From assembly GCA_001303705.1 (NCBI GenBank), contig LJUI01000007.1:1-62985 (forward strand): a DNA stretch of 62,985 nt, written 5' to 3'. Below the pieces are notes generated by a model that saw nothing but the letters and a program-made list of their open reading frames with translations, was not told the DNA's origin and made no database searches. The position numbers were made by a program, and so were the translations under genes. The stretch's first letter is position 1; every line of letters starts with the position of its first letter. This document shows, in pieces, positions 4,946-21,576 of this stretch. This DNA comes from a candidate division TA06 bacterium SM23_40. Its GTDB lineage: Bacteria > LJUI01 > SM1-40.

Positions 4946-5190
4946 CCCCAGGGGGGAGACGTCGACCACACGTGATAGTTCAGCCTGCGAAGCGCTACTC
5001 ATTGGACGACCTTCATCCGGCTAGTGCTATTACATTCGAGTGCGGGCCGGAGATGTGTAATGGGTCGCCACGGAAAGGAGGTGGGGCACTGACGAGCTAA
5101 TTACGGTTGGAGGGGTTCGGACGCTGGGCAGAAGACAGTTCGCATCGATCACACACCCAGGATGCCGAATAAAAAAGGAGGACTTCGCCC

Positions 5191-7332: not shown

Positions 7333-7509
7333 CCTGCGCCCTCTCTCCCGGAGTCGGCAGGAGCGTACATCAAGATCCCGGCCGCATTCCCGGGTGCGAT
7401 CTACCCCTCTGAATCACTCCACCCAGGTGCAGATCGAACACCGCACACGGCGGAGCCGCACACAGAATGCCCCAATCCTATGCCGTTCTCCTGGGCCAGT
7501 ACATGTGAA

Positions 7510-7538
7510 TTGACAGGCCCGAACAAGGATGGTAACAT
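7510..7538 (+). promoter_or_regulatory. sigma70-type promoter candidate TTGACA-N17-TAACAT for the giant regulator
   Basis: TTGACA at 7510-7515, a 17-nt spacer, TAACAT at 7533-7538. It overlaps the track start codon at 7529, which argues for the ATG at 7598. Confidence 0.5.
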
Positions 7539-7597
7539 GGCGAGGAGCGAGTAAATCGATTGCTGCACCCTGCATCGGTCAGCATACGGAGCGCACT

Positions 7598-10500
7598 ATG
7601 GAACGGCCGGTCATCAATAACCGGTATGAAATGCTGGAGAAAATGGGCGAAGGGGGGAGCGGAGAGGTCTATCGGGTGAGGGATCTGCTCAAGGAGCGCA
7701 CCGTGGCCCTCAAGATGCTCTCGCGCCTCGGCGGGGCGGGCGAGCGCTATCTGCGCTTCAGGCACGAGTTCAGGACCATGACCAGGCTCCGCCATCCTCA
7801 CATCGTCGAGGTGTACGACTTCGGCGTCACCCAGGATGACATTCCCTTCTTCACCATGGAGCACATAGCCGGCGGGACTATCACAGAGTACCTGGCTCGT
7901 GTCGGCCTCGAGTACCCGACCCTGGCAATGCTGCTCACCCAGATCTGCCAGACCCTCGAATACATACACGGCAAGGGGCTGGTCCACGGCGACATCAAGC
8001 CCGGCAACATCCTCGTACAGGAGGGAGAGACACCTGCTGTCAAGCTCATGGACTTTGGCCTGGCAGCACGGATAGCCGATCTCGCCCGGGCCGGGGTCAC
8101 GGAGACAGCGCAGACCGGTCTCCTCGCCGGTACGCTCGAATACATCGCACCCGAGATCGCCCGGGGCCGGTATGCCGACCGCCGCACCGACCTGTACTCG
8201 CTGGGGGTCGTGCTCTACGAGATCGCCACGGGCATCTGCCCGTTCAGGGGAGACAGCCCGGTCTCTCTCATTCGCCAGCACCTCGAGACCGCCCCCATAC
8301 CTCCCAGCGAGCAGGTGGAAGAAGTCGATACAGAACTCGAAGAGATCATTCTCCGGCTCCTGGAGAAGCGACCCTCGCACCGCTTCCAGTCTGCTGCAGA
8401 GTTGATGAATCGGCTGCTCAGCATCGGTGATGAGGAATTGGCGGTCCTTCCTCTCCCTTCTGATCACATCATGAGTGCGGAGTTCGTGGGCCGCGAGGAA
8501 GAACTGCGTGCTCTCCAGTCCGTACTCGAAGAGGCGACAGGTGGGGCGGGAAGAACAGTTCTTGTCGAAGGTGAAGTCGGCGTTGGAAAATCACGCCTCG
8601 TCGAGGAGTTCAAATTCAACGCTCAGCTCGAGCGGGCCGCAACCCTGGAAGCGACCTGCTTTCAGGGACAGAGAGAACTCCACGGTGCGGTGCGCGACAT
8701 CATACTGCAGGCAGTTGGACTTGTCGAACCGAGAAATCCAGACCTCGTATACCAGCATGCGAGAGCGCTCATCAGGTTCGTTCCCGAACTCCGCGAGAAA
8801 CCCTATCTAGCCTACATCGAGGAGCCGCCCGAGCTCGAGCCAGCGCAGGAGCGGCTCCGTTTCCTCGACGATGCCGCCCGCTTCCTCTCGGCGGCATCAC
8901 ACCACCAGCCACTCGTAGTCTTCATCGACAATCTCCACCTCGCAGACAGGATGACCGTCGAGTTCGTGCGCTACCTTGCGAGAAACGTGAAGCGGAACCG
9001 TATCTTGCTCTGCGCCACGTACAGAAAAGGAGAGCTCCCCCTCGCTGACGAAAGCGAACGAGGGACTCGTGTGGCTCAGCTCATCTCGTGGCTCGCCGAG
9101 CGCACTGACGTCCGGGAGATCACACTGGAGCGCATGCGGAAGGACGAGATCAAGGTTCTCATCAGCACCCTGCTTGGAGCTGCCGACCCTCCGGCCGAGC
9201 TCGCCGGCTTTCTCTTCGAGCGCACCGGAGGAAACCCACTCTTCTGCGTCGAGATGCTTCGATCCATGGTCGAAGAAGGCCTGCTCGTGCGTCGGAACCA
9301 TCAGTGGCAGTTCTCCAGGCCCGGCGTGCCCGCCGTTCCCCGCACGGTACGGACGATAATAGGCCGACGTCTCGAGCGTCTTGATAGGACACGAAAGGAG
9401 ATCGTTGAGGCGATAGCGATTGCCAGGAAGGACATTGAGGTAGAGACACTCCGCGAGATGGTAGGGCGCGATGAAGAAGAGCTTCTCGACTGCCTCCACG
9501 AACTCGTGCGAGTAGGCATAGTCGAGGAGAGGAGGCCCGATGCCTCGATCACCTATCAGTTCGCCCACGCCCTGCTCAAGCAGACAGTGTACGAAAGCAT
9601 CTCCGAAGACGCAAGACGCGAACTGCACGGAAGACTTGCACATCTCCTAAGGGCGGCGTGTGGCGACGATGAGGCTTTTGCCGGCGACCTCGCCTATCAC
9701 TTCCACAATGGAGGCGATATAGAGGAAGCGCTCCACTACTCCCGCGTTGCTGCAACACGCGCGGCGAACGCCTACGCAAACGAGGAGGCAATCGAGCACT
9801 ACAGCCGCATCCTCGCCCTGCTCGGCGATGACGGGGACGAGTATCGGCTCGAGATCCTCCTCACGTTGGGAGAACTTTACGATGTGACCGGGTGCTATAA
9901 CGAGGCAGTGAAGACCAACGAAGATGCGCTCGCTCTTGCCAAGCGCCTGAAGGCTCCACCAGCGACGGTGGCCGACATCCACCGCCGCCTGGGTCACATC
10001 TGGTTCCAACAGGGACAGTACGAGCAGGCCCACAGAGCCCTCCGGAAGGGGATCCAGCGGCTCGGAGCGAAGAGCGAGACACCGGAGATGGCTCGTCTGC
10101 GGAACGAGATCGGGTGGATATACGTGCGCCAGGGCGAACACGAGAAGGCAATCGAAAGTTGTCTCAAAGGACTCCGGCTCGTCGAGGCTACCGACCACTT
10201 CTATGAGCTCGCCCAGTCCCAGAATCTGCTCGGCGTGATCTATCTCAACAAAGGCGACTACGAGCGCGCGACGAGATATCATCTCGAGGCGCTCGAACTG
10301 AGGGAGAAGGTTGGAGCACGACGCGACGTGGGGGGATCATACATCAACCTCGGGGTCTGCGCCTCGAGAGCAGCAAGATGGGAGGAGGCGGCCGACTACT
10401 ATCGAAAGGGTCTGAAGATCATGCAGGAGGTGGGCGCTGTCCGCGGCATCGCGATTCTCCTCGACAATCTCGGCAATCTCGCGAGCCGGAGAGGCGAACT

Positions 10501-13021
10501 GGACCAGGCCCTCGATTACTCGCTTCAGGCGCTGGAGATCGCCGAACGAATCGGGGACCGCCAGGGGATCGCGCGTCTCTACAACAACCTCGGTTTGACA
10601 TGCGAACGGCGGGGAGAGTATGAACGGGCTCTTGAGTTCCAGATGAAAGGGCTGGAGCTGCGGCAGGCAATGGGGGATTCGAGAGGGACCGTGATCGGAC
10701 TGCACAACTTGGGGTCGATCCAGATGAGAATGGGCTCGTGGGATCAGGCACGCGAAACGCTGCTCCAGGGGCTCGCCATGAGCAAGGATGTTGGAGAACC
10801 TGGCGTGGCGGTCGCGTGTTCCCTGCTCCTCGGTCAACTCCACCACCGGATGGGCGCCTGGGACGATGCGCTCGACCACTACCTCAGTGTCATCCGCGAT
10901 TGCGTGCGAATGAAGGACCTGCTCAGAGAGGCCAACGCCTCAGGACTCCTCGGCCTGCTGCACCTCGACCGAGGCGACACTGAGGCGGCACAACCTCTGT
11001 TCACCCGTCAACTGGAGGTCGCCGAAAAGGTCGGCGCTCGCGACGAGCTCGTCGCCGCCCACATTGGTCTCGCACAGTACCACCTGGCCCGAGGCGAGGA
11101 TGACGAGGCAAACCGTCTGGCCCTGAAAGCGGTGGATGTATCCCGCCAGATCGGCATTCCTGTACTCAAGGGTGAGGCGCTCACCGTCGCAGCCACAACA
11201 TGGAGTGCGCTCGGGGAGAGGGAGCAGGCCCGTGAAGCGTTCGATGAGGCCATTGAGCTTCTGCAGTCGACCGGCGCACCGTACGAGCACTCCCGCGCAC
11301 TGGCTGCCTCGGGATGGGACAGGATAGATGCCGGGGAGACAGAACGAGGGTGGGAAGATCTCGGAGAGGCCGAGACTATTTTCCTGAAGCTCGGTGCAGC
11401 ACGAGAAGCGTCGAAAATCTGGGATGGCGTGAAGGGCGCCGACGATTCCTACGTCTCGAAGCTTCGTAAGGAGGGGAAGGAGCTCGCGACCCTCTACCGG
11501 ATCAGCCAGGTTATGAACTCAATCCTCGATCTCGATCGCTTGCTTGACAAGGTCATGGATCTCGTCGTCGAGACAATGCGTGCAGAGCGCGGCGTCCTGA
11601 TGCTCCTCGACAGTCAGACTGGCACTCTCGACGTACGGGTCGCGCGCAATATGGATCGGGCTACGATCGAGGATGCGCGTAACATCAGTCTCGGAATCAT
11701 CAGAGATGTGGCACGACGCGGACAACCCGTCGTTACTGCAGATGCCCAGACCGATGCCCAGTTCAAGGAGCGGGAGAGCGTCGTTCTGTACGGCATCAGA
11801 TCGCTACTCTGCGTTCCCCTCAAGATCCGGGGAGAGATCGTCGGCACGATCTATCTCGACAACCGACGCGCGTCCGACATGTTCGGCCCGGACGATGTCG
11901 AGTTCCTTACGGCGTTCGCCAACCAAGCTGCCATCGCGCTCGAGAATGCGCGTATCTATGTGGAGCTCAAGGAGGCCAAAGAGCGTCTGGACCAGGAGAA
12001 CATTGCTCTCCGCAAGGAGGTAGTGGGCCGCTATCGGTTCGAGAACATCGTCGGCCGAAGTGCGAGGATGGAGGAAGTATACGATCTCGTAGAGAAAGTG
12101 TGCCAGAGCCGAGCCAACGTACTCATCTTCGGGGAGAGCGGCACAGGCAAGGAACTTATCGCCAAGACGATCCACTATCACGGCCCGCGCGCCCAGGGGC
12201 CGTTCGTCCAGATCAACTGCGCTGCCCTGCCCGAGACCCTGCTGGAGAGCGAACTCTTCGGCATCGAGCGGGGAACGGCAACCGGTGTCGACCGCCGGAT
12301 CGGGAAGTTCGAACAAGCAGACGGAGGAACGCTCTTCCTCGACGAGATCGGCGATATGAGCCCTGCCGTCCAGGCCAAGGTGCTGCGCGTATTACAGGAG
12401 CGGGAATTCGAGCGCGTGGGCGGGCGAAAGACCGTCTCGGTCGATGTCAGGATCATCGCCGCAACGAATAAGGATCTGGAACGCCTGGTGAAGGATGGGA
12501 CCTTCCGTGAGGATCTGTACTACCGTCTCAACGTGGTGCCGATCATCATTCCTCCCCTGCGCCAGCGGCGGGACGACATACCGGAGCTTGCAGATCACTT
12601 TCTCATGCGATTTGCTGCGGAGAACGACCGGGAACTCACCGGCATCTCACCCGCCGCCATGCGCCTCCTTATGTCCTACGACTGGCCGGGGAACGTGCGC
12701 GAATTGGAGAATGCAATCGAGCGAGCCGTGGTGATCGAGTGCGAAACAGCCATCGCTCCTGAGAGCCTGCCCCAGGCTGTGGTCCAGGCCGTGGAGGCGC
12801 CAAGGACCGAGCCGACCGAAGAAGATCTGCACCATATGGATTACCGGAAGGCGAAAGAGGTGCTCATCGATCGATTCGATCGCGACTACCTGGAGGATCT
12901 TCTCTTCCGTAACTGCGGCAACATATCCCAGTCCGCCCGGGAGGCAGGTATGGACAGACGAAATCTCCAGACCAAGCTGAAGCGGTACGGGATCGATCCA
13001 GAGAAGTTCCGCAGGCAATAG
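7598..13021 (+). CDS. 1,807-aa chimeric regulator: Ser/Thr protein kinase + P-loop (AAA_16/STAND-like) NTPase + TPR array + GAF + sigma54-interaction AAA+ + Fis-type HTH
   Basis: ATG 7598 with GGAG upstream. Kinase motifs: [26 protein letters not shown]-loop [10 protein letters not shown] (about 8569-8598). TPR-like repeats span about 9.7-11.4 kb and GAF about 11.48-11.96 kb. The AAA+ domain (12038-12733) has [19 protein letters not shown] and [36 protein letters not shown] lies at about 12916-12990. Confidence 0.9.
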
Positions 13022-13122
13022 GATACCACTACCTGCCACCACTTCCTGTTCTCCCCGATCGACCACAGCACTTCTCCGTTCCCCCTCAGACATCGATGCC
13101 ATGTCAACCAGCGTTGATCCCG

Positions 13123-13182
13123 GAGACGGCGACGAGCCCCGAGCCGGCGATGACCCAAGAGACGGCGACGAGCCCCGAGCCG
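13123..13182. repeat. Two copies of a 24-nt direct repeat at 36-nt period
   Basis: GAGACGGCGACGAGCCCCGAGCCG occurs at 13123-13146 and again at 13159-13182, in the non-coding gap after the regulator. Confidence 0.8.
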
Positions 13183-13333
13183 CGGAGATCCGCCCTCGGC
13201 TATCAGGGCCATTGAAGCCTTATCCGGCCGTGAACATCTAGACTGCTGCGGCGTGCAGGCTACACCCGATACTACCTCTCCGGGCGCGTAACTCACCGAC
13301 TGGTATGAGGATGCCCCTGACCGACGAGCAGCA

Positions 13334-13355
13334 GGTGCGGCACCCAGACCGCACC
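13334..13355. promoter_or_regulatory. Palindromic candidate enhancer (UAS) GGTGCGG-N8-CCGCACC, copy 1
   Basis: GGTGCGGcacccagaCCGCACC. Its centre lies about 121 bp upstream of the -24 GG of the sigma54 promoter at 13465. An identical half-site pair with the same spacing occurs at 16942-16963. Confidence 0.55.
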
Positions 13356-13464: not shown

Positions 13465-13480
13465 TGGCACAGGTCTTGCT
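13465..13480 (+). promoter_or_regulatory. sigma54 (-24/-12) promoter TGGCAC-N5-TTGCT
   Basis: TGGCACaggtcTTGCT is an exact match to the TGGCAC-N5-TTGCW consensus. It sits in a non-coding gap about 220 nt upstream of ATG 13702, immediately downstream of a sigma54-type activator gene. Confidence 0.75.
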
Positions 13481-13701: not shown

Positions 13702-16065
13702 ATGCGTAGACAGAGAGGAATCGGATGGTGGCATGGTGCCATTGCAGGACTTCTGCTCCTCGCGGGAGCAGCGGCCTCATACGGCATCGACATCGAGCCT
13801 GATGATGACTCCTGGGTCGATCAGGCTAACCCGCCGATGAACTACGGCACTGACTGGGACATCCACGTTGGATACTGGAACGGGATCCAGCGCGGGTACT
13901 TCAAGTTCGATGTGAGCGGCATACCTGATGCCGACACGGTATACGAGGCCAAGGTCTATCTATACCTGTACGGCTCGGGCGGCCCTGTCGTCAACTACGG
14001 GATGCATAAGGTGTACGACGACTCCTGGAGCGAGACAACGATCAACTGGATAAACCAGCCCATGACACACGGACCGACGATCTCGGTGAATGCGATCGGC
14101 GGCATCAGCCCGCCCGGCTGGTACATCTGGGATGTAACAGATGATGTGGAGATCGAGCACCTCCTCCTGGCAGATGACATCCTCAGCCTGGTGCTCAAGC
14201 TCGAGGACGAGGCCCCACCGCCTCCCAATTGGCCGTGGGCCGAGTTCTACGCCAAGGAGAACTTCACCAACGAGCCGTACCTTATGGTCGCTCACGGGCA
14301 CCGGGGGTTCGAGCCCTCGACCGAGGTGTTGACCGGCGTATGGCAGGGAGATGCCGCGTGGTCCGACACGGACGGCGACGGGGATCTTGACCTCGCGCTC
14401 CACGGCAACTCGAGTATCACCCAGCCGGGCACGAATGTGACCGAGGTGTACAAGAACTTCTACCTCGGGTTCACCTATCTCCACCAGAACCAGTCTCTTG
14501 ACGGCGTGTGGAGCGAGGGATCGAATTCGATGGCCTGGGGTGACTACGATGGAGACGGGGATCCGGACCTGGCGGTCGCAGGAGACACGGGCTCGGGATT
14601 CACAACTTCAGTCTATCAGAATGACGGCGAGGGCAACCTCACGCTCGACGCGAATCAGAATCTTCCGGGTGTGAAGAATGCCTCACTCGCCTGGGGTGAC
14701 TATGATGGCGACGGCGACCTCGACCTGGTACTCGCCGGACATGACGGTACTGCCAACATCTGCCGCATCTACGAGAATGACCACCGACACCGGCTGGTCT
14801 GGGACCCGAATCAGAACTTGACGGGTATCAACGCCGGCTCGGTAGCGTGGGGCGACTACGATAACGATGGGGATCTCGACCTCGCCATCGCCGGCGGCTC
14901 CGCCGGCGGCCGGATAACGGAGCTGTACAAGAACGGACCCACCGGAACCCTGACGCTCGATCCGAGCCAGAATCTGGTCGGAGCCAGTCTCTGTTGCCTG
15001 GCGTTTGGCGATTACGACAACGATGGCGATGTCGATCTGGCACTGACAGGATCGACTGGCGCCGGAGCCCAGAAGTCATACCTGTACGAGAACACAAATG
15101 CTGTCTACTCCCTGACCGACAGCCTGCGCCATCTGTACCGCAGCTCCCTCGCATGGGGAGATGTCGACGGCGATGGGTACCTCGACCTCGGGCTTATGGG
15201 GTATGACGGGGGCACGCTCCACAGTTACGTGTACTACCAGTCGCGGTGGCCTCTGATCGGCATCTTCACCGAGCGCGATTGGGGATTCTCGGGCGTTCGT
15301 GAAGGCTCGCTCACATTCGCCGACTACGATGGAGATATCGATCTCGATCTCCTCATCACGGGGGCGACATGGGACGAGCCGCGCGCAGACCTGTACGACA
15401 ACCGGGGGACGATCAACACCGCGCCGTCCCCGCCGACGAGCGGTTTTTCCTCGAGCCATGCGGCAGGCGTGCTCACGCTCGCCTGGGGGAACGGCAGCGA
15501 TACCGAGACTCCGTCTTCCGGCCTGTACTACAACCTGAGAGTGGGCACCAGTTCCGGTGCGGACGACGTGAGGAGCGGCGTGCTCGCCACGCCGATGCTG
15601 GGGAACTACCTCCAGACGAATTCGATCTCGCTCAACGTTCCGAGCGACATCTACTACTGGAGCGTACAGACGGTCGACCCAGGCATGCAGGTCTCCAGCT
15701 GGTCGGGCGAACAGGTGTTCACTCCTGGCGTCACCGTACAGATGGTCCCGGATACGACCCCGATCATCATCCCGCAGGGAGGCGGGTCATTCGGATTCAC
15801 CGCCATCCTCACTAACAACACGGCGTCTCCACAGACGGTCCAGGGATGGATCGAGGTGACACTCCCCAACGGCAATCCGTATGGGGGGAACCCGGTCATC
15901 GGTCCGCTCAGTGTAACGCTCAACCCCGGCCAGGTTTTCTCCAAGCACATGACGCAGAGCGTCCCGGGAAACGCACCTGCCGGTGCCTACGTGTACGACG
16001 GCGTGATTGGCCAACCCTATCCCATACAGCTCGACAGGGACGGAATCGAATTCACCAAACAGTAA
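13702..16065 (+). CDS. Secreted FG-GAP/VCBS-repeat protein with N-terminal DNRLRE-like domain and an uncharacterised ~105-aa C-terminal beta-domain
   Basis: The internal ATG 13702 has GGAAGGAG upstream and a signal peptide (MRRQRGIGWWHGAIAGLLLLAGAAASYG). N-terminal domain: DDSWVDQANPPMNYG...YFKFDVSGIP...WSETTINW. More than 7 repeats of WGDYDGDGDLDL. There is no FlgD-like tail. Confidence 0.85.
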   Translation: MRRQRGIGWWHGAIAGLLLLAGAAASYGIDIEPDDDSWVDQANPPMNYGTDWDIHVGYWNGIQRGYFKFDVSGIPDADTVYEAKVYLYLYGSGGPVVNYGMHKVYDDSWSETTINWINQPMTHGPTISVNAIGGISPPGWYIWDVTDDVEIEHLLLADDILSLVLKLEDEAPPPPNWPWAEFYAKENFTNEPYLMVAHGHRGFEPSTEVLTGVWQGDAAWSDTDGDGDLDLALHGNSSITQPGTNVTEVYKNFYLGFTYLHQNQSLDGVWSEGSNSMAWGDYDGDGDPDLAVAGDTGSGFTTSVYQNDGEGNLTLDANQNLPGVKNASLAWGDYDGDGDLDLVLAGHDGTANICRIYENDHRHRLVWDPNQNLTGINAGSVAWGDYDNDGDLDLAIAGGSAGGRITELYKNGPTGTLTLDPSQNLVGASLCCLAFGDYDNDGDVDLALTGSTGAGAQKSYLYENTNAVYSLTDSLRHLYRSSLAWGDVDGDGYLDLGLMGYDGGTLHSYVYYQSRWPLIGIFTERDWGFSGVREGSLTFADYDGDIDLDLLITGATWDEPRADLYDNRGTINTAPSPPTSGFSSSHAAGVLTLAWGNGSDTETPSSGLYYNLRVGTSSGADDVRSGVLATPMLGNYLQTNSISLNVPSDIYYWSVQTVDPGMQVSSWSGEQVFTPGVTVQMVPDTTPIIIPQGGGSFGFTAILTNNTASPQTVQGWIEVTLPNGNPYGGNPVIGPLSVTLNPGQVFSKHMTQSVPGNAPAGAYVYDGVIGQPYPIQLDRDGIEFTKQ

Positions 16066-16789: not shown

Positions 16790-16941
16790 ATGCAGCCCGC
16801 CGGAGACAGGCCGATCCCGCCCCACTCTCCTCCTCAATTGTCCGGCGTCGATGTCCGACGTGCCAATCGACATCGCCCCCGGGGCGCCGGCTCTATTCTC
16901 TCCGCGAGCTCTGCCATGACCGGCTGATGTCGGCAAGCGTT

Positions 16942-16963
16942 GGTGCGGTGTCTGCACCGCACC
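16942..16963. promoter_or_regulatory. Palindromic candidate enhancer (UAS) GGTGCGG-N8-CCGCACC, copy 2
   Basis: GGTGCGGtgtctgcaCCGCACC. Its centre lies about 129 bp upstream of the -24 GG of the sigma54 promoter at 17080. Confidence 0.55.
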
Positions 16964-17079
16964 CAAGGCTCCCGGCGACGCCGTACCGAATGCGACCATG
17001 CCCGTCGCGTGTCCATAATCTACCACTGCGCATATAGTTCCGTCCATCGGGTCCACAGATCACCGGTCCCACGGCAGAC

Positions 17080-17095
17080 TGGCACGGTGCTTGCT
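17080..17095 (+). promoter_or_regulatory. sigma54 (-24/-12) promoter TGGCAC-N5-TTGCT
   Basis: TGGCACggtgcTTGCT is an exact consensus match, located in non-coding DNA. The next plus-strand gene starts at 17511. Confidence 0.7.
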
Positions 17096-17510
17096 ATGAT
17101 GACTCTATAGATGGCGATGCGGACCGCCATCTGGTGAGGATCCGGAATCCAGCCGGAGAAAGCGAGGTGAATTAGGATCATCCCGGGAGCGACTGAGTTC
17201 CCACAGCGGCAGTCGGCCTCACCACGGGTCTCTTCGGTTGCACATCTCCCCTTCGCTCGGAGGGCGTCCTTCGCCCTCCGAGCTCCTAACTCTATCGGGC
17301 CTGTCCTCCAGACAGAAAATTCCATTGCCAAGGGGCGAGCTTTCCGGTAAAGTAACGGTAAACGGGCCTCGACGCCCTGACGCGGTATGGGGCGGACGGA
17401 CGTTCCCCCGATCAAGGCCATCTGCCGGGGACAGGAGGGACCTCTGATCGAGCCCATGCGGGCATGGGGCGCCTATCCGGGCCCCCGCACCATGAATAGG
17501 AAATGACTTG
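17096..17510 (+). promoter_or_regulatory. ~415-nt GC-rich structured leader / unclassified RNA between the sigma54 promoter and the ATPase gene
   Basis: No credible ORF in this stretch. Helices: GATGGCG/CGCCATC (about 17110-17131); GGTGAGG (17134-17140) pairing with CCTCACC (17216-17222) around three sub-hairpins; a perfect 12-bp hairpin GCTCGGAGGGCG/CGCCCTCCGAGC (17255-17283); CCCATG/CATGGG near 17450. Confidence 0.35.
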
Positions 17511-19310
17511 ATGATCGAGGTACGCGATCTCCATTTTTCCTACCGATATGCCGGTGGATCGATCGATGCCCTTCGCGGCATCACGCTCACCGTCGACCAT
17601 GGCGAGTTCGTCGCCGTAATGGGCCCCAACGGCTCCGGGAAATCGACACTCGCCCTCTGCCTCAACGGCATCCTCACCCCGACCTCGGGCGCGGTCATGA
17701 TCGACGGAGAGGATTCAGGTGCACCTGGCATGCGCTGGAAGATCAGACGAACGATAGGCCTCGTCTTCCAGAATCCGGACAACCAGTTCATCACGTCCAC
17801 TGTAGAACGAGAGATCGCCTTCGGCTTAGAGAACCTGGGCCTCCCCTCACGCGACATCCGCGACCGTGTCGAGAGGACTATGGCCGCGTTCTCTCTCGAA
17901 CGGTATCGCCACACTGCTCCACACAACCTCTCTGGCGGCGAAAAGCAGAAGGTGGCGTGTGCTGCGGTGGTGGCGATGGAACCGAAGTGGATCATCCTCG
18001 ATGAGCCCGCCGCCTTGCTCGATCGCCGCGGAGAGGATCAGGTCTTCCAACAGATAGAGCGTCTGCGCGATCTCGGTGTGGGAGTGATCCTCATCACCCA
18101 GAATGTCCGGGAGGCACTCTCGGCAGAGAGGCTCGTCCTCCTCGACAGGGGGCACGTCAGTGCCGACCGTACTCCTCCGTCGTTTGAGCCGGGAGAGGGG
18201 CTTGAATCGCTGCCTGCGGTACGCCTGGCCACACAACTGAAGCAGAACGGTATTGGCATCAGTGACCTCCCGGTGACGCCACAGGCTCTCACAGATGAGC
18301 TCCATCGGGCCTACGGTAATCGTTCCTTTGAGATCAGGGTCTCTGAGGCAGATCATCCCGGTCCGGCGAGCCCGTCTCCAGCGCTCGCGCTCTCGATGCC
18401 CCCTCAGCCGACCGGTACGTCTTCCGACACAACCGGGGCAGGCGCGACCCCGCGTTCGCCTGAACAAGCGCTCATTGAGATGCAGGATGTCGATTTCTCC
18501 TACCGGCACGGACTTCAAACGGAACGCCCCGCACTCTGCGACGTGGACCTCAGGATCGGCGCCGGCGATTCCTTCGCCCTCGTCGGCCCGACAGGTTCAG
18601 GGAAGAGCACCCTCGCGCTCCACCTGAACGCGCTCCTCAGGCCGGATCGCGGTCGGGTATTCGTACAAGGAGAGCCGTTGACCAATGGCAAAGGGAGGCT
18701 GGCTGAGGTGAGGCAATTTGTCGGGGTCGCCCTCCAGTACCCTGAAGATCAGTTCTTTCTCGACACTGTATTCGATGAGCTCGCGTTCGGCCCCAGGAAT
18801 TTCGGTCTCTCAGAGTCAGAGCTGCCCAACCTGGTGGCCGAAGCGCTGACTATGGTCGGACTCGACCCCGATCAGTTCTCTTCGCGCTCCCCGTTTACTC
18901 TCTCCTATGGTGAGGCGAGGAGGGCGGCGCTGGCGGCGGTGCTCTCGTGGAAACCGGACGTCCTCGTTCTCGACGAACCCACGGCCGGGCTCGATGCTCA
19001 GGGGCGAGGAGCGATCGTTCAGCTCATGCGATCTCTCGGCGCCGCAGGGCGGACAGTCATCATCATCTCTCATGACGTTGACCTTGCACTCGAGGAATGT
19101 ACAAGCGCCGGCATACTGGATCAGGGCAAGCTCGTACGGGCTGGGCCGCCGGGCACACTGGTAGCTGATGATCTCCTGTTACAGGTTGGACTGGCCCTCC
19201 CCGAGGTGACCCAGGTCATGCGGCACCTCAACGCTCTCGGATGGCCTGTCTCCGGTGCTGTCGCCTCGGTCAGTCACGCCTGCGCCGAGATCCTCGGCGC
19301 CCTCTCGTGA
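17511..19310 (+). CDS. Fused tandem ABC ATPase of the energy-coupling-factor (EcfA-EcfA') type
   Basis: Two complete ABC cassettes (GPNGSGKST...LSGGEKQKV...ILDEP and GPTGSGKST...LSYGEARRA...VLDEP) joined by a Pro/Ser/Thr-rich linker. ATG 17511 is preferred over TTG 17508. No EcfT or S-component gene follows. Confidence 0.85.
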   Translation: MIEVRDLHFSYRYAGGSIDALRGITLTVDHGEFVAVMGPNGSGKSTLALCLNGILTPTSGAVMIDGEDSGAPGMRWKIRRTIGLVFQNPDNQFITSTVEREIAFGLENLGLPSRDIRDRVERTMAAFSLERYRHTAPHNLSGGEKQKVACAAVVAMEPKWIILDEPAALLDRRGEDQVFQQIERLRDLGVGVILITQNVREALSAERLVLLDRGHVSADRTPPSFEPGEGLESLPAVRLATQLKQNGIGISDLPVTPQALTDELHRAYGNRSFEIRVSEADHPGPASPSPALALSMPPQPTGTSSDTTGAGATPRSPEQALIEMQDVDFSYRHGLQTERPALCDVDLRIGAGDSFALVGPTGSGKSTLALHLNALLRPDRGRVFVQGEPLTNGKGRLAEVRQFVGVALQYPEDQFFLDTVFDELAFGPRNFGLSESELPNLVAEALTMVGLDPDQFSSRSPFTLSYGEARRAALAAVLSWKPDVLVLDEPTAGLDAQGRGAIVQLMRSLGAAGRTVIIISHDVDLALEECTSAGILDQGKLVRAGPPGTLVADDLLLQVGLALPEVTQVMRHLNALGWPVSGAVASVSHACAEILGALS

Positions 19311-19494: not shown

Positions 19495-21576
19495 ATGAGC
19501 AGGTCTCTCCTCGCGATTACGCTGCTGCTGGCGCCAACGATCGCCCTTCCCCAGACAGCACGCATCACCATCGATACCGCTACCGATCTAGGGGCGGTGA
19601 ACAAAAACGTTCTGGGCACCAACATCTCGGTCCATTTGCCTGAGTATTACATGCTGAATCTGATGCCTCAGGGGAAAATGCAAGACCTCAGGCCCACCGT
19701 TGTGAGGTGGCCTGGAGGCAACGCAGCCTGCGAGTACAACTGGAAGATCGACGGAGATTTTCGAGACACCCTCGGCGCAGAATACGGACTGAATATCGTC
19801 GACATCGCCCAGGTCTGTGAGACGATAGGTGCGGAGCTCCTGATAGTAGCCAATTTCGGGACGATGAATGCAGAGGATGCCGCCGACTTCGTAGAGTTCT
19901 GCAACGGTCCAGTGACCTCTGAGTGGGGACACGTGAGAGATTCGCTCGGGATTCCCGAACCACTCAATGTACAGTACTGGGAGATCGGCAACGCGCTCTA
20001 TGATGAAGAGATGTGGCATTACTGCTGGACCGCCCAAGATCCGAGGAAGTACTACTTCGGCGGAAGCGAAGAGAGGAGGGGAAGCCTTTCTCCGTTTCCC
20101 GCCTTTCCCGCGGCAAAGGGCGACCTGCTCGTGAGCGATGGCTCGCCGAATCAGCGGATCGTGATCCGCTTCCCCGATGTCGTGGAGGGCTCAGACACTC
20201 TCTGGGTGGGCCCTGATACTTCCAGTCTCGAGCCATGGACACGGATCGAGAATCTCGGCGAGGTTCAGGAGGGGAACTACTACCAGATGGACTACGAGAA
20301 CGATGTCGTCACACTCGGCAACGGCAGGCACGGAAACATCCCCGAGTCAGGCCACATCGTACTCTGTGAATACACCACCACCAACCATGATGGCTATGTC
20401 GATTTTGCCGATGCAATGAAATCCGTCGATCCCACGATCAGGATCGGCATCTGCCTGGACCCCGACCCGACCTGGAGCCAGGATACCATCGAAACGGTAC
20501 TGGACCGGATCGACTTCTACTCAATGCACCAATACCGCCAGGAAGATACCACATTCCCTGGCGAATATCTGCAGCGAATCCGCGCTCCGACAAGATACCT
20601 CAGGTTGGCGCATGAAAAGAGAAAGGCTATCGACGAATGGGCCGGCCCCCATGCCGAGGGGATCGGCCTCGCCATCACTGAATGGAATTGGATGCTCTGG
20701 AGGCACACCCGCGCCACTCCGCTGGCAAACGTGAGCCTGGCCAATGCACTCGTCTCCGCAGAGGTGCTGGGGAGACTGAGCACAGAGGCTGACAGCCTCC
20801 ATCTGGTCGTGGCAAACCACTTCTGTGCCGCCACCGCCTGGGACCTAGGCTACCTCGCCCTCATAAGCCACGAGTACACGCGGCGGCCCGCCTTCTATGC
20901 GTTCATGTTCTTCAACGACTACTTCGGGGAACGACTCGTGCACCGCGAGGTCGAAACGGACTGGTACGTTGCCGGGAACGACACAGTGCCCCTGGTGACG
21001 GCCTTTACGAGCACGAGCCTCTCCGGCGATACGCTCCATCTTATCGCCATCAACAAGCACGACACCCTTGACTACGAGACGGAGATCGAGATCTCCGGCT
21101 TCGAGCCTGATTCGATCGCCTTTGTGTACACCCTCAATGGAGATAGCGTGTACGCGACGAACGAGGAGGACTCAGCGAATATCACCATCCAGGACACCCT
21201 GATCACATATGCCTCGGAAAACTTCACCTACACGCTCCCAGCACATTCCCTGACTGCGATAGCCTTTCTGAATCGCCACATGGGCGAGGACAGCATCACT
21301 TCCTATCAATTGCAGCAGAACGCGCCAAATCCATTCGCGTCCTCTACGACGTTCGACTATGCGATCCCGGAGCCGGGCCCTGTCGAGCTCAGGGCGTACA
21401 ACCTCCTCGGCCAGCGGGTGAAGACGTTCCACAATGGCGGGATGCAGCCCGGCCGGTATACGATGACGTGGGACGGCAGGGGAGACGATGGCATAAAGGT
21501 GGCGTCGGGTGTCTACTTCATCGTGTTGCGGGCAGGGGATCTCGTCGTCGCAAAGAAGGTGCTGCTAGTGCGGTAA
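19495..21576 (+). CDS. Secreted clan GH-A glycoside hydrolase (alpha-L-arabinofuranosidase-like) with FlgD-like/T9SS-type C-terminal domain
   Basis: The internal ATG 19495 gives signal peptide MSRSLLAITLLLAPTIALPQ. Motifs VRWPGGNAACEYNW, YWEIGNALY (acid/base Glu) and ITEWNW (nucleophile Glu). Tail reads QNAPNPFASSTTFDYAIPEPGPVELRAYNLLGQRV...WDGRGDDGIKVASGVYF. Confidence 0.75.
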   Translation: MSRSLLAITLLLAPTIALPQTARITIDTATDLGAVNKNVLGTNISVHLPEYYMLNLMPQGKMQDLRPTVVRWPGGNAACEYNWKIDGDFRDTLGAEYGLNIVDIAQVCETIGAELLIVANFGTMNAEDAADFVEFCNGPVTSEWGHVRDSLGIPEPLNVQYWEIGNALYDEEMWHYCWTAQDPRKYYFGGSEERRGSLSPFPAFPAAKGDLLVSDGSPNQRIVIRFPDVVEGSDTLWVGPDTSSLEPWTRIENLGEVQEGNYYQMDYENDVVTLGNGRHGNIPESGHIVLCEYTTTNHDGYVDFADAMKSVDPTIRIGICLDPDPTWSQDTIETVLDRIDFYSMHQYRQEDTTFPGEYLQRIRAPTRYLRLAHEKRKAIDEWAGPHAEGIGLAITEWNWMLWRHTRATPLANVSLANALVSAEVLGRLSTEADSLHLVVANHFCAATAWDLGYLALISHEYTRRPAFYAFMFFNDYFGERLVHREVETDWYVAGNDTVPLVTAFTSTSLSGDTLHLIAINKHDTLDYETEIEISGFEPDSIAFVYTLNGDSVYATNEEDSANITIQDTLITYASENFTYTLPAHSLTAIAFLNRHMGEDSITSYQLQQNAPNPFASSTTFDYAIPEPGPVELRAYNLLGQRVKTFHNGGMQPGRYTMTWDGRGDDGIKVASGVYFIVLRAGDLVVAKKVLLVR

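Follow-up and report, generated by a model that had tools for sequence, protein, structure and literature searches.

A predicted enhancer dyad shared by sigma-54 promoters beside a kinase/STAND-fused giant regulator with a Phe-less loop in a candidate division TA06 bacterium

The window analyzed here, a stretch of 62,985 nucleotides from a candidate-division sediment bacterium for which we know of no cultured relatives, is contig C4 of the genome searched (2,883,088 bp in 189 contigs, about 90% complete). It encodes a very large putative regulator, followed on the same strand by genes mostly for secreted proteins, and two of its intergenic regions carry the same palindrome, each time at a distance of somewhat over 100 bp from a sigma-54 promoter. 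The features on which the text relies are the following (UAS, upstream activator sequence).

7426..7447, no strand assigned: copy of the dyad with two mismatches, GGTGCAGatcgaacaCCGCACA, about 75 bp 5' of the sigma-70-like promoter of the regulator gene
7598..13021, + strand: candidate activator of 1,807 aa, with Ser/Thr kinase, AAA_16 (STAND), TPR, GAF, sigma-54 AAA+ and HTH_8 domains
12272..12289, + strand: codons of the L1 loop GTATGV, in place of the usual GAFTGA, within the regulator gene
13245..13266, no strand assigned: predicted distal UAS of P1, weaker, GCTGCGGcgtgcaggCTACACC, with three mismatches, 89 bp 5' of the proximal dyad
13334..13355, no strand assigned: predicted proximal UAS of P1, an exact dyad, its center 121.5 bp 5' of the -24 GG
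13465..13480, + strand: sigma-54 promoter P1, TGGCACaggtcTTGCT, an exact consensus match
13702..16065, + strand: P1 target, a secreted CBM96/DNRLRE and FG-GAP repeat protein of 787 aa
16415..16789, + strand: open reading frame of 124 aa, consisting of the approximately 100-aa C-terminal domain of the P1 target alone
16942..16963, no strand assigned: predicted UAS of P2, an exact GGTGCGG-N8-CCGCACC dyad, which reads GGTGCGGtgtctgcaCCGCACC and is followed by C
17080..17095, + strand: sigma-54 promoter P2, TGGCACggtgcTTGCT, an exact match to TGGCAC-N5-TTGCW
17096..17510, + strand: untranslated leader of P2, about 405-415 nt, up to the first gene
17511..19310, + strand: first P2 target, 599 aa, an ECF-transporter double ATPase in which EcfA1 and EcfA2 are fused
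19495..21576, + strand: second P2 target, a secreted arabinofuranosidase/GH39-like glycosidase (693 aa) ending in a T9SS type A sorting tail

The letters at positions 16942-16964 are GGTGCGGtgtctgcaCCGCACCc, and the symmetry of this copy runs on to arms of 9 bp, GGTGCGGTG-tctg-CACCGCACC, the center of the dyad being 128.5 bp 5' of the -24 GG of P2. No supported gene contains the dyad: the interval 16790-17510 is left uncalled by the gene calls on four sister contigs, and the shadow open reading frames that overlap the P2 region have no Pfam match. P2, in which the GG and GC doublets stand 10 bp apart as they do in P1, is itself non-coding and points at the downstream gene, and, judged from the usual spacing to the -12 box, its transcription would start near position 17106. 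The resulting leader is unusually long. It has no match in Rfam (nor does the whole segment 12500-18500), it is not repeated elsewhere in the genome, and its predicted folding is no more stable than that of shuffled sequence (z = -0.9).

The half-sites upstream of P1 and P2 are identical at all 14 positions, and the spacer is 8 nt in both. The initial annotation had described an identical palindrome with an equal spacer and a trailing C, paired with an exact consensus promoter, and a reading of the sequence together with a search of the window agrees on every point, the exact palindrome occurring in the window only at 13334 and 16942, and the exact promoter consensus only at 13465 and 17080. 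It had also placed the two palindromes at the same distance from their promoters, and this is true only roughly: the spacings to the -24 GG are 121.5 bp at P1, which begins 440 bp past the regulator stop codon, and 128.5 bp at P2, a 7-bp gap of about two thirds of a helical turn.

As to the probability of such an arrangement by chance, the exact palindrome has two copies in the genome, those of P1 and P2, versus 0.064 expected from base composition, and palindromes with one mismatch number three. Exact sigma-54 consensus sites number 19, versus 2.7 expected, indicating that sigma-54 promoters are in real use in this organism, whose genome encodes one sigma-54 (rpoN; PF04552, 195.8 bits, contig C101) and 18 proteins with a full activator domain. 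Both exact dyads lie 110-117 bp before exact consensus sites, and the probability that two of two palindromes would lie 100-130 bp upstream of any of the 19 promoters is about 4e-8, in support of the earlier claim that the pairing is very unlikely to be accidental.

The dyads of the window belong to a larger set. A third promoter, P3 (TGGCATgtctcTTGCT; C169, positions 230-215), with a single mismatch to the consensus (TGGCAT), is preceded at exactly 121.5 bp by the dyad GGTGTGGtttggaaaCCGCACC, also with one mismatch (C169, 340-361), and points at a signal-peptide gene truncated by the end of the contig. The region is covered further by a sister-strain contig from a JGI sediment metagenome (L016), and is present in an NCBI assembly as well. 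On L016, P3 is followed by four tandem genes for beta-helix (NosD/Pel9A-like) proteins of about 520 aa each, with secreted products, and the second of these is preceded by a fourth promoter, P4, with the exact consensus TGGCACgccgcTTGCT (L016, 5352-5367), seen only on the sister-strain contig. A dyad copy with two mismatches lies at exactly 121.5 bp from P4, and another dyad lies at 207.5 bp. The tandem beta-helix genes (L016, 3440-10449) are missing from the present assembly, in which C169 ends inside the first of them, and so the regulon is incomplete in the deposited genome; P4 is absent from it, probably owing to a break in the assembly caused by the paralogous genes. Scans for tandem dyad pairs and for one-mismatch dyads accompanied by promoters produced no further dyad-promoter pairs beyond P1-P4. 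Thus, of the two-promoter mini-regulon proposed initially, the notion of a shared regulatory set stands, while its size needs to be revised to at least four promoters.

The geometry of the four upstream regions is nearly fixed. The proximal dyads are centered at 121.5, 128.5, 121.5, and 121.5 bp from P1-P4, respectively, and weaker second dyads occur 86-89 bp further 5' at P1 (210.5 bp from the promoter), P3 (209.5 bp), and P4, i.e., at 207.5-210.5 bp, the probability that three of four promoters would have a distal site no more than 3 bp away from that position being about 3e-9. P2 departs from the other three by its 7-bp offset, by its leader of approximately 405 nt and by the lack of a distal dyad; a different palindrome, CGATGTC-N13-GACATCG, is found at 16849-16875, where the distal dyad of P2 would be expected. 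The short dyads common to at least three of the four upstream regions are all pieces of the GGTGCGG-N8-CCGCACC motif, and the 8-mer ACCGCACC is present in all four. In addition, GC content reaches its minimum (0.40-0.45) at -60 to -41 from the promoter in all four cases. Such an AT-rich patch would fit a bend or an HU/IHF site, and two HU/IHF genes are present in the genome; among the four promoters checked, an IHF consensus was found at P4 only, with one mismatch.

Strain-level variation can be followed in the 90% cluster of the regulator, which yielded four contigs matching the window at more than 99.9% identity. None of these strains has a change in the dyads or in the -24/-12 boxes; the neighboring intergenic DNA does vary. 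In one of them (L012), all nine substitutions in the 545-bp spacer between the regulator gene and P1 fall in its first 223 bp, 5' of the distal dyad (P ~ 3e-4). At P3, the substitutions cluster just beside the dyad and in spacers, and none affects a half-site or a -24/-12 box, a pattern that is suggestive of constraint, with few changes to judge from. The comparative check put forward in the initial annotation, conservation of both elements at orthologous loci, covers near-identical strains, and within that narrow range both are unchanged. The sole strain-variable part of the P1 upstream region, at 13120-13240, where the nine L012 substitutions are located, also contains two copies of a direct repeat, agacggcgacgagccccgagccg, in the spacer after the regulator gene.

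The genes downstream of these promoters encode, for the most part, exported proteins that probably act on polysaccharides. At its C-terminus the P1 target has a lineage-specific domain of about 100 aa, shared with the P3 target and with the 124-aa reading frame, which may be co-transcribed from P1; some 25 proteins of the genome contain this domain. The EcfA fusion downstream of P2 scores above the cut-off for both ECF ATPase equivalogs, TIGR04520 and TIGR04521, with no gene for a membrane subunit (EcfT or S-component) beside it; the secreted glycosidase comes next.

The regulator encoded immediately upstream of P1 possesses a Sigma54_activat domain (PF00158, 241.9 bits) and a HTH_8 domain (28.1 bits versus a cut-off of 22), with intact Walker A and B motifs and the sequence GESGTGKE, and its best NCBIfam match, below the cut-off, is NifA. 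Its L1 loop deviates from the canonical GAFTGA, with Phe replaced by Ala, Thr retained and the length kept; in one strain a synonymous change falls within the GTATGV codons. This loop is found in a single one of the 18 activators of the genome, the giant regulator, the other 17 having canonical or near-canonical loops. The deviation, the chief argument against naming this protein as the activator, matters because in PspF the Phe and the adjacent Thr of GAFTGA contact region I of sigma-54 (PMC3467059), and because activator-like proteins without GAFTGA work at sigma-70 promoters (bioRxiv 10.1101/2023.06.06.543975). On the other hand, a protein with a GVATGV loop, DVUA0100 of Desulfovibrio vulgaris Hildenborough, has been predicted to be an activator of sigma-54 promoters (Kazakov et al., 2015, PMC4641369). 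The string "GTATGV" is not mentioned in the context of the sigma-54 loop in the searchable literature.

Two observations connect this protein to the dyads. First, an activator gene is found no more than 6 kb away from 11 of the 19 exact sigma-54 promoters of the genome, versus about 8% expected, and so adjacency is a reasonable guide to the activator; P1 and P2 are located 0.4 and 4 kb past the regulator gene with no other activator gene between, and other sigma-54 promoters of the genome have different dyads. Second, the same gene order is found in relatives. Loops of the G(T/V)ATGV type occur in about 24 of the best 146 representative clusters for the AAA+-HTH part, GTATGV being conserved within a subfamily. 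Three giants from a different lineage also carry GTATGV; they share 52-58% identity among themselves and approximately 30% with the regulator of the window. Each has a dyad, TTGGAATAATTCCAA, that spans its own stop codon at -138, another copy 32 bp further on (-106), and a sigma-54 promoter 136 bp past the stop (L089, 15125-15284; L090, 15128-15287; L091, 5760-5919). The promoters past these giants lead into three to four small secreted-looking reading frames (56-96 aa) with no family match. Two shorter GTATGV regulators (at L088 and L092) have no well-spaced sigma-54 promoter adjoining. A beta-helix gene beside the former (P0009) was considered as a case of conserved synteny and was rejected, as its relative at L092 is without such a gene and neither locus has a well-spaced promoter.

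Dyad-like sites are also present next to promoters of another type. The two-mismatch copy at 7426-7447 precedes the near-perfect sigma-70-like promoter of the regulator gene (TTGACA-17-TAACAT, 7511-7539) and may possibly be an autoregulatory site; an extra CCGCACAC is found near it, and its first base varies in L012. On C126 (5080-5165), a one-mismatch dyad (5142-5163) follows tandem half-site repeats, GGTGCGGCGA, in the 5' UTR of a secreted-protein gene driven by a sigma-70 promoter (TTGACA-17-TATGCT), with no sigma-54 promoter, this contig being full of proteins with the shared C-terminal domain of about 100 aa.

Taken together, the genome-wide rarity of the palindrome, its fixed position and its invariance among strains make it very probable that the dyad is the activator site of promoters P1-P4. 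That the adjoining 1,807-aa regulator is the activator we regard as probable, the case being built from adjacency and from the same gene order in relatives, and weighed against the unusual loop. According to this model, an external or envelope signal would be sensed via the kinase/STAND/TPR/GAF part of the regulator, freeing its AAA+ domain for ring assembly on the paired dyads. At P2, a dimer of this enhancer-binding protein would occupy the dyad at 16942-16963 through its Fis-type helix-turn-helix and give rise to an ATP-hydrolyzing ring, which would reach the sigma-54 RNA polymerase at 17080-17095 by DNA looping, probably aided by the AT-rich patch between dyad and promoter, and open the promoter. 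One type of dyad would in this way serve at least four promoters, controlling the exoprotein from P1, the ATPase and the glycosidase from P2, and the beta-helix proteins from P3 and P4, with the Phe-less GTATGV as a working variant of GAFTGA. A wider proposal, that G(T/V)ATGV is a widespread, working, Phe-free alternative to GAFTGA whose carriers, including the giants fused to kinase and STAND domains, still drive sigma-54 promoters, appears to us about evenly balanced.

In kind, this is a textbook arrangement of enhancer and sigma-54 promoter, and what is unusual is the giant regulator and its Phe-less loop. The NtrC/glnAp2 and the NifA/nif promoters are alike in the exact -24 GG/-12 GC promoter and in the paired dyad sites some 100-210 bp upstream with an AT-rich stretch between, and their activators share the GAF-AAA+-HTH_8 core. 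They differ in the sequence and geometry of the site: the UAS of NifA at nif promoters is TGT-N10-ACA, and the NtrC half-site, GGTGCA, is similar to that of the GGTGCGG-N8-CCGCACC dyad, but is arranged the other way round. The regulator considered here is also four times larger, has the GTATGV loop and would act on exoprotein rather than nitrogen genes. DVUA0100 is alike in being a one-component activator with a Phe-less loop that was assigned computationally to neighboring sigma-54 promoters via a shared upstream motif, but its N-terminal region and its targets (type III secretion) are different, and its role is likewise a prediction only. The same kinase/STAND/TPR/GAF/AAA+/HTH_8 domain order is found in single polypeptides of Acidobacteriota, Thermoanaerobaculia, Coatesbacteria, and others; homologs of the giant regulator number in the thousands, with identities of 42-50% over the C-terminal 580 aa. 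To our knowledge, no member of these kinase/STAND/sigma-54 giant regulators has been characterized. Most of them have GAFTGA where the regulator of the window has GTATGV, and it is for the latter that we can propose a specific DNA site together with a set of targets. Finally, NtrC of Caulobacter and Rhodobacter, NtrX, and VspR resemble it in having an activator-type AAA+ fold without the canonical sigma-54-contacting motif. In these sigma-70-type proteins, however, the loop is deleted, whereas here its length is kept, G(T/V)ATGV is conserved, and the genes lie beside sigma-54 promoters.

The alternative that survives best retains the dyad as a true sigma-54 enhancer and assigns it to one of the 17 activators with canonical loops, the giant regulator being unrelated or a modulator only. 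The Phe through which PspF contacts sigma-54 is missing from the giant (PMC3467059), no activator gene is found near P3 and P4, which are on a different contig, and the two shorter GTATGV regulators lack a clear adjoining sigma-54 promoter. The half-site GGTGCG is, moreover, found in dyads of other geometries at two further sigma-54 promoters, C136 ~19328 (CGGTGCGCACCG) and C182 ~17365 (CGCACC-T-GGTGCG), which suggests the existence of related HTH domains differing in spacing preference. We nevertheless consider this alternative unlikely, in view of the published GVATGV precedent (PMC4641369) and of the loop itself, which is full-length and conserved, as opposed to the deleted loops of the sigma-70-type relatives. 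The strong clustering of sigma-54 promoters with activator genes in this genome, the position of P1 and P2 just past the giant with no competing activator gene between, and the maintenance of dyads and sigma-54 promoters right after the genes of diverged GTATGV giants all speak for the giant regulator as the activator.

It could also be argued that the giant does bind the dyads without activating sigma-54, as a repressor or anti-activator, as a regulator of the sigma-70 type, or as a protein in need of a canonical partner in a mixed ring, of which the activator pair HrpR/HrpS is an example. The Phe-less loop, the occurrence of GAFTGA-less proteins at sigma-70 promoters, and the dyad-like sites beside sigma-70-like promoters at 7426-7447 and on C126 would all agree with such a role. 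However, the strong dyads do not overlap the perfect -24/-12 boxes but stand off from them by the distance classic for enhancers, the fixed spacing of 121.5 bp and the tandem sites fit activation by looping, and the ATPase motifs are intact, making this explanation improbable. Least probable, and practically excluded by the searches, is the absence of any regulatory role, by which the palindrome would be a product of chance, a dispersed repeat, or a hairpin or terminator of the upstream gene: the dyad is indeed able to form a GC hairpin of 7-9 bp, but two exact copies are present where 0.06 are expected, no similarity to the flanks is seen elsewhere in the genome, no T-run follows the dyad, and at three of the four sigma-54 promoters the spacing is the same to the base pair. 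A REP- or MITE-like element, whose frequent occurrence in the genome the initial annotation had named as the observation that would speak against its proposal, was rejected on the two exact and three one-mismatch copies and on the two intergenic regions, which in BLAST match only themselves in the genome. An intrinsic terminator was rejected as well, as the T-run is absent and the site is not in the output of the terminator scan.

With the giant regulator as the favored activator, the system is of interest in several respects. It provides a concrete and testable DNA site and target list for a protein from a very large family, that of the giant kinase/STAND/sigma-54 regulators. The occurrence of perfect sigma-54 promoters together with the Phe-less loop makes the engagement of this loop with sigma-54 directly testable, and a four-promoter regulon with a defined site and a lone GTATGV activator among 18 offers a clean system for the question of the loop. 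If G(T/V)ATGV does prove to be a working motif, the view based on PspF, of the loop Phe as indispensable, would have to be revised. The combination in one regulon of exported CBM96/FG-GAP, beta-helix, and glycosidase proteins with an orphan ECF ATPase suggests that the cell responds to an external polymer in a coordinated manner.

The 40 genomes available as nearest relatives have only the domain in common with the present genome, the next homologs of the regulator show identities of 46-50% in the C-terminal part and of about 30% overall, and no orthologous locus at an intermediate evolutionary distance was recovered among relatives or in public pattern scans. Scans for the exact dyad plus promoter pattern returned 25 hits in genome contigs and 43 in metagenome contigs, among which only the contigs of this same population were recovered as related loci. 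The remaining hits are scattered over unrelated organisms, Streptomyces and Kribbella among them, and resemble chance occurrences or other systems. A separate observation concerns a Candidatus Poribacteria metagenome-assembled genome (L028, 2807-2959), in which GGTGCGGTTAGGAAACCGCACC nearly matches the P3 dyad, including its spacer; this site lies in AT-rich intergenic DNA and precedes TTGGCACagataTTGC by 118 bp.
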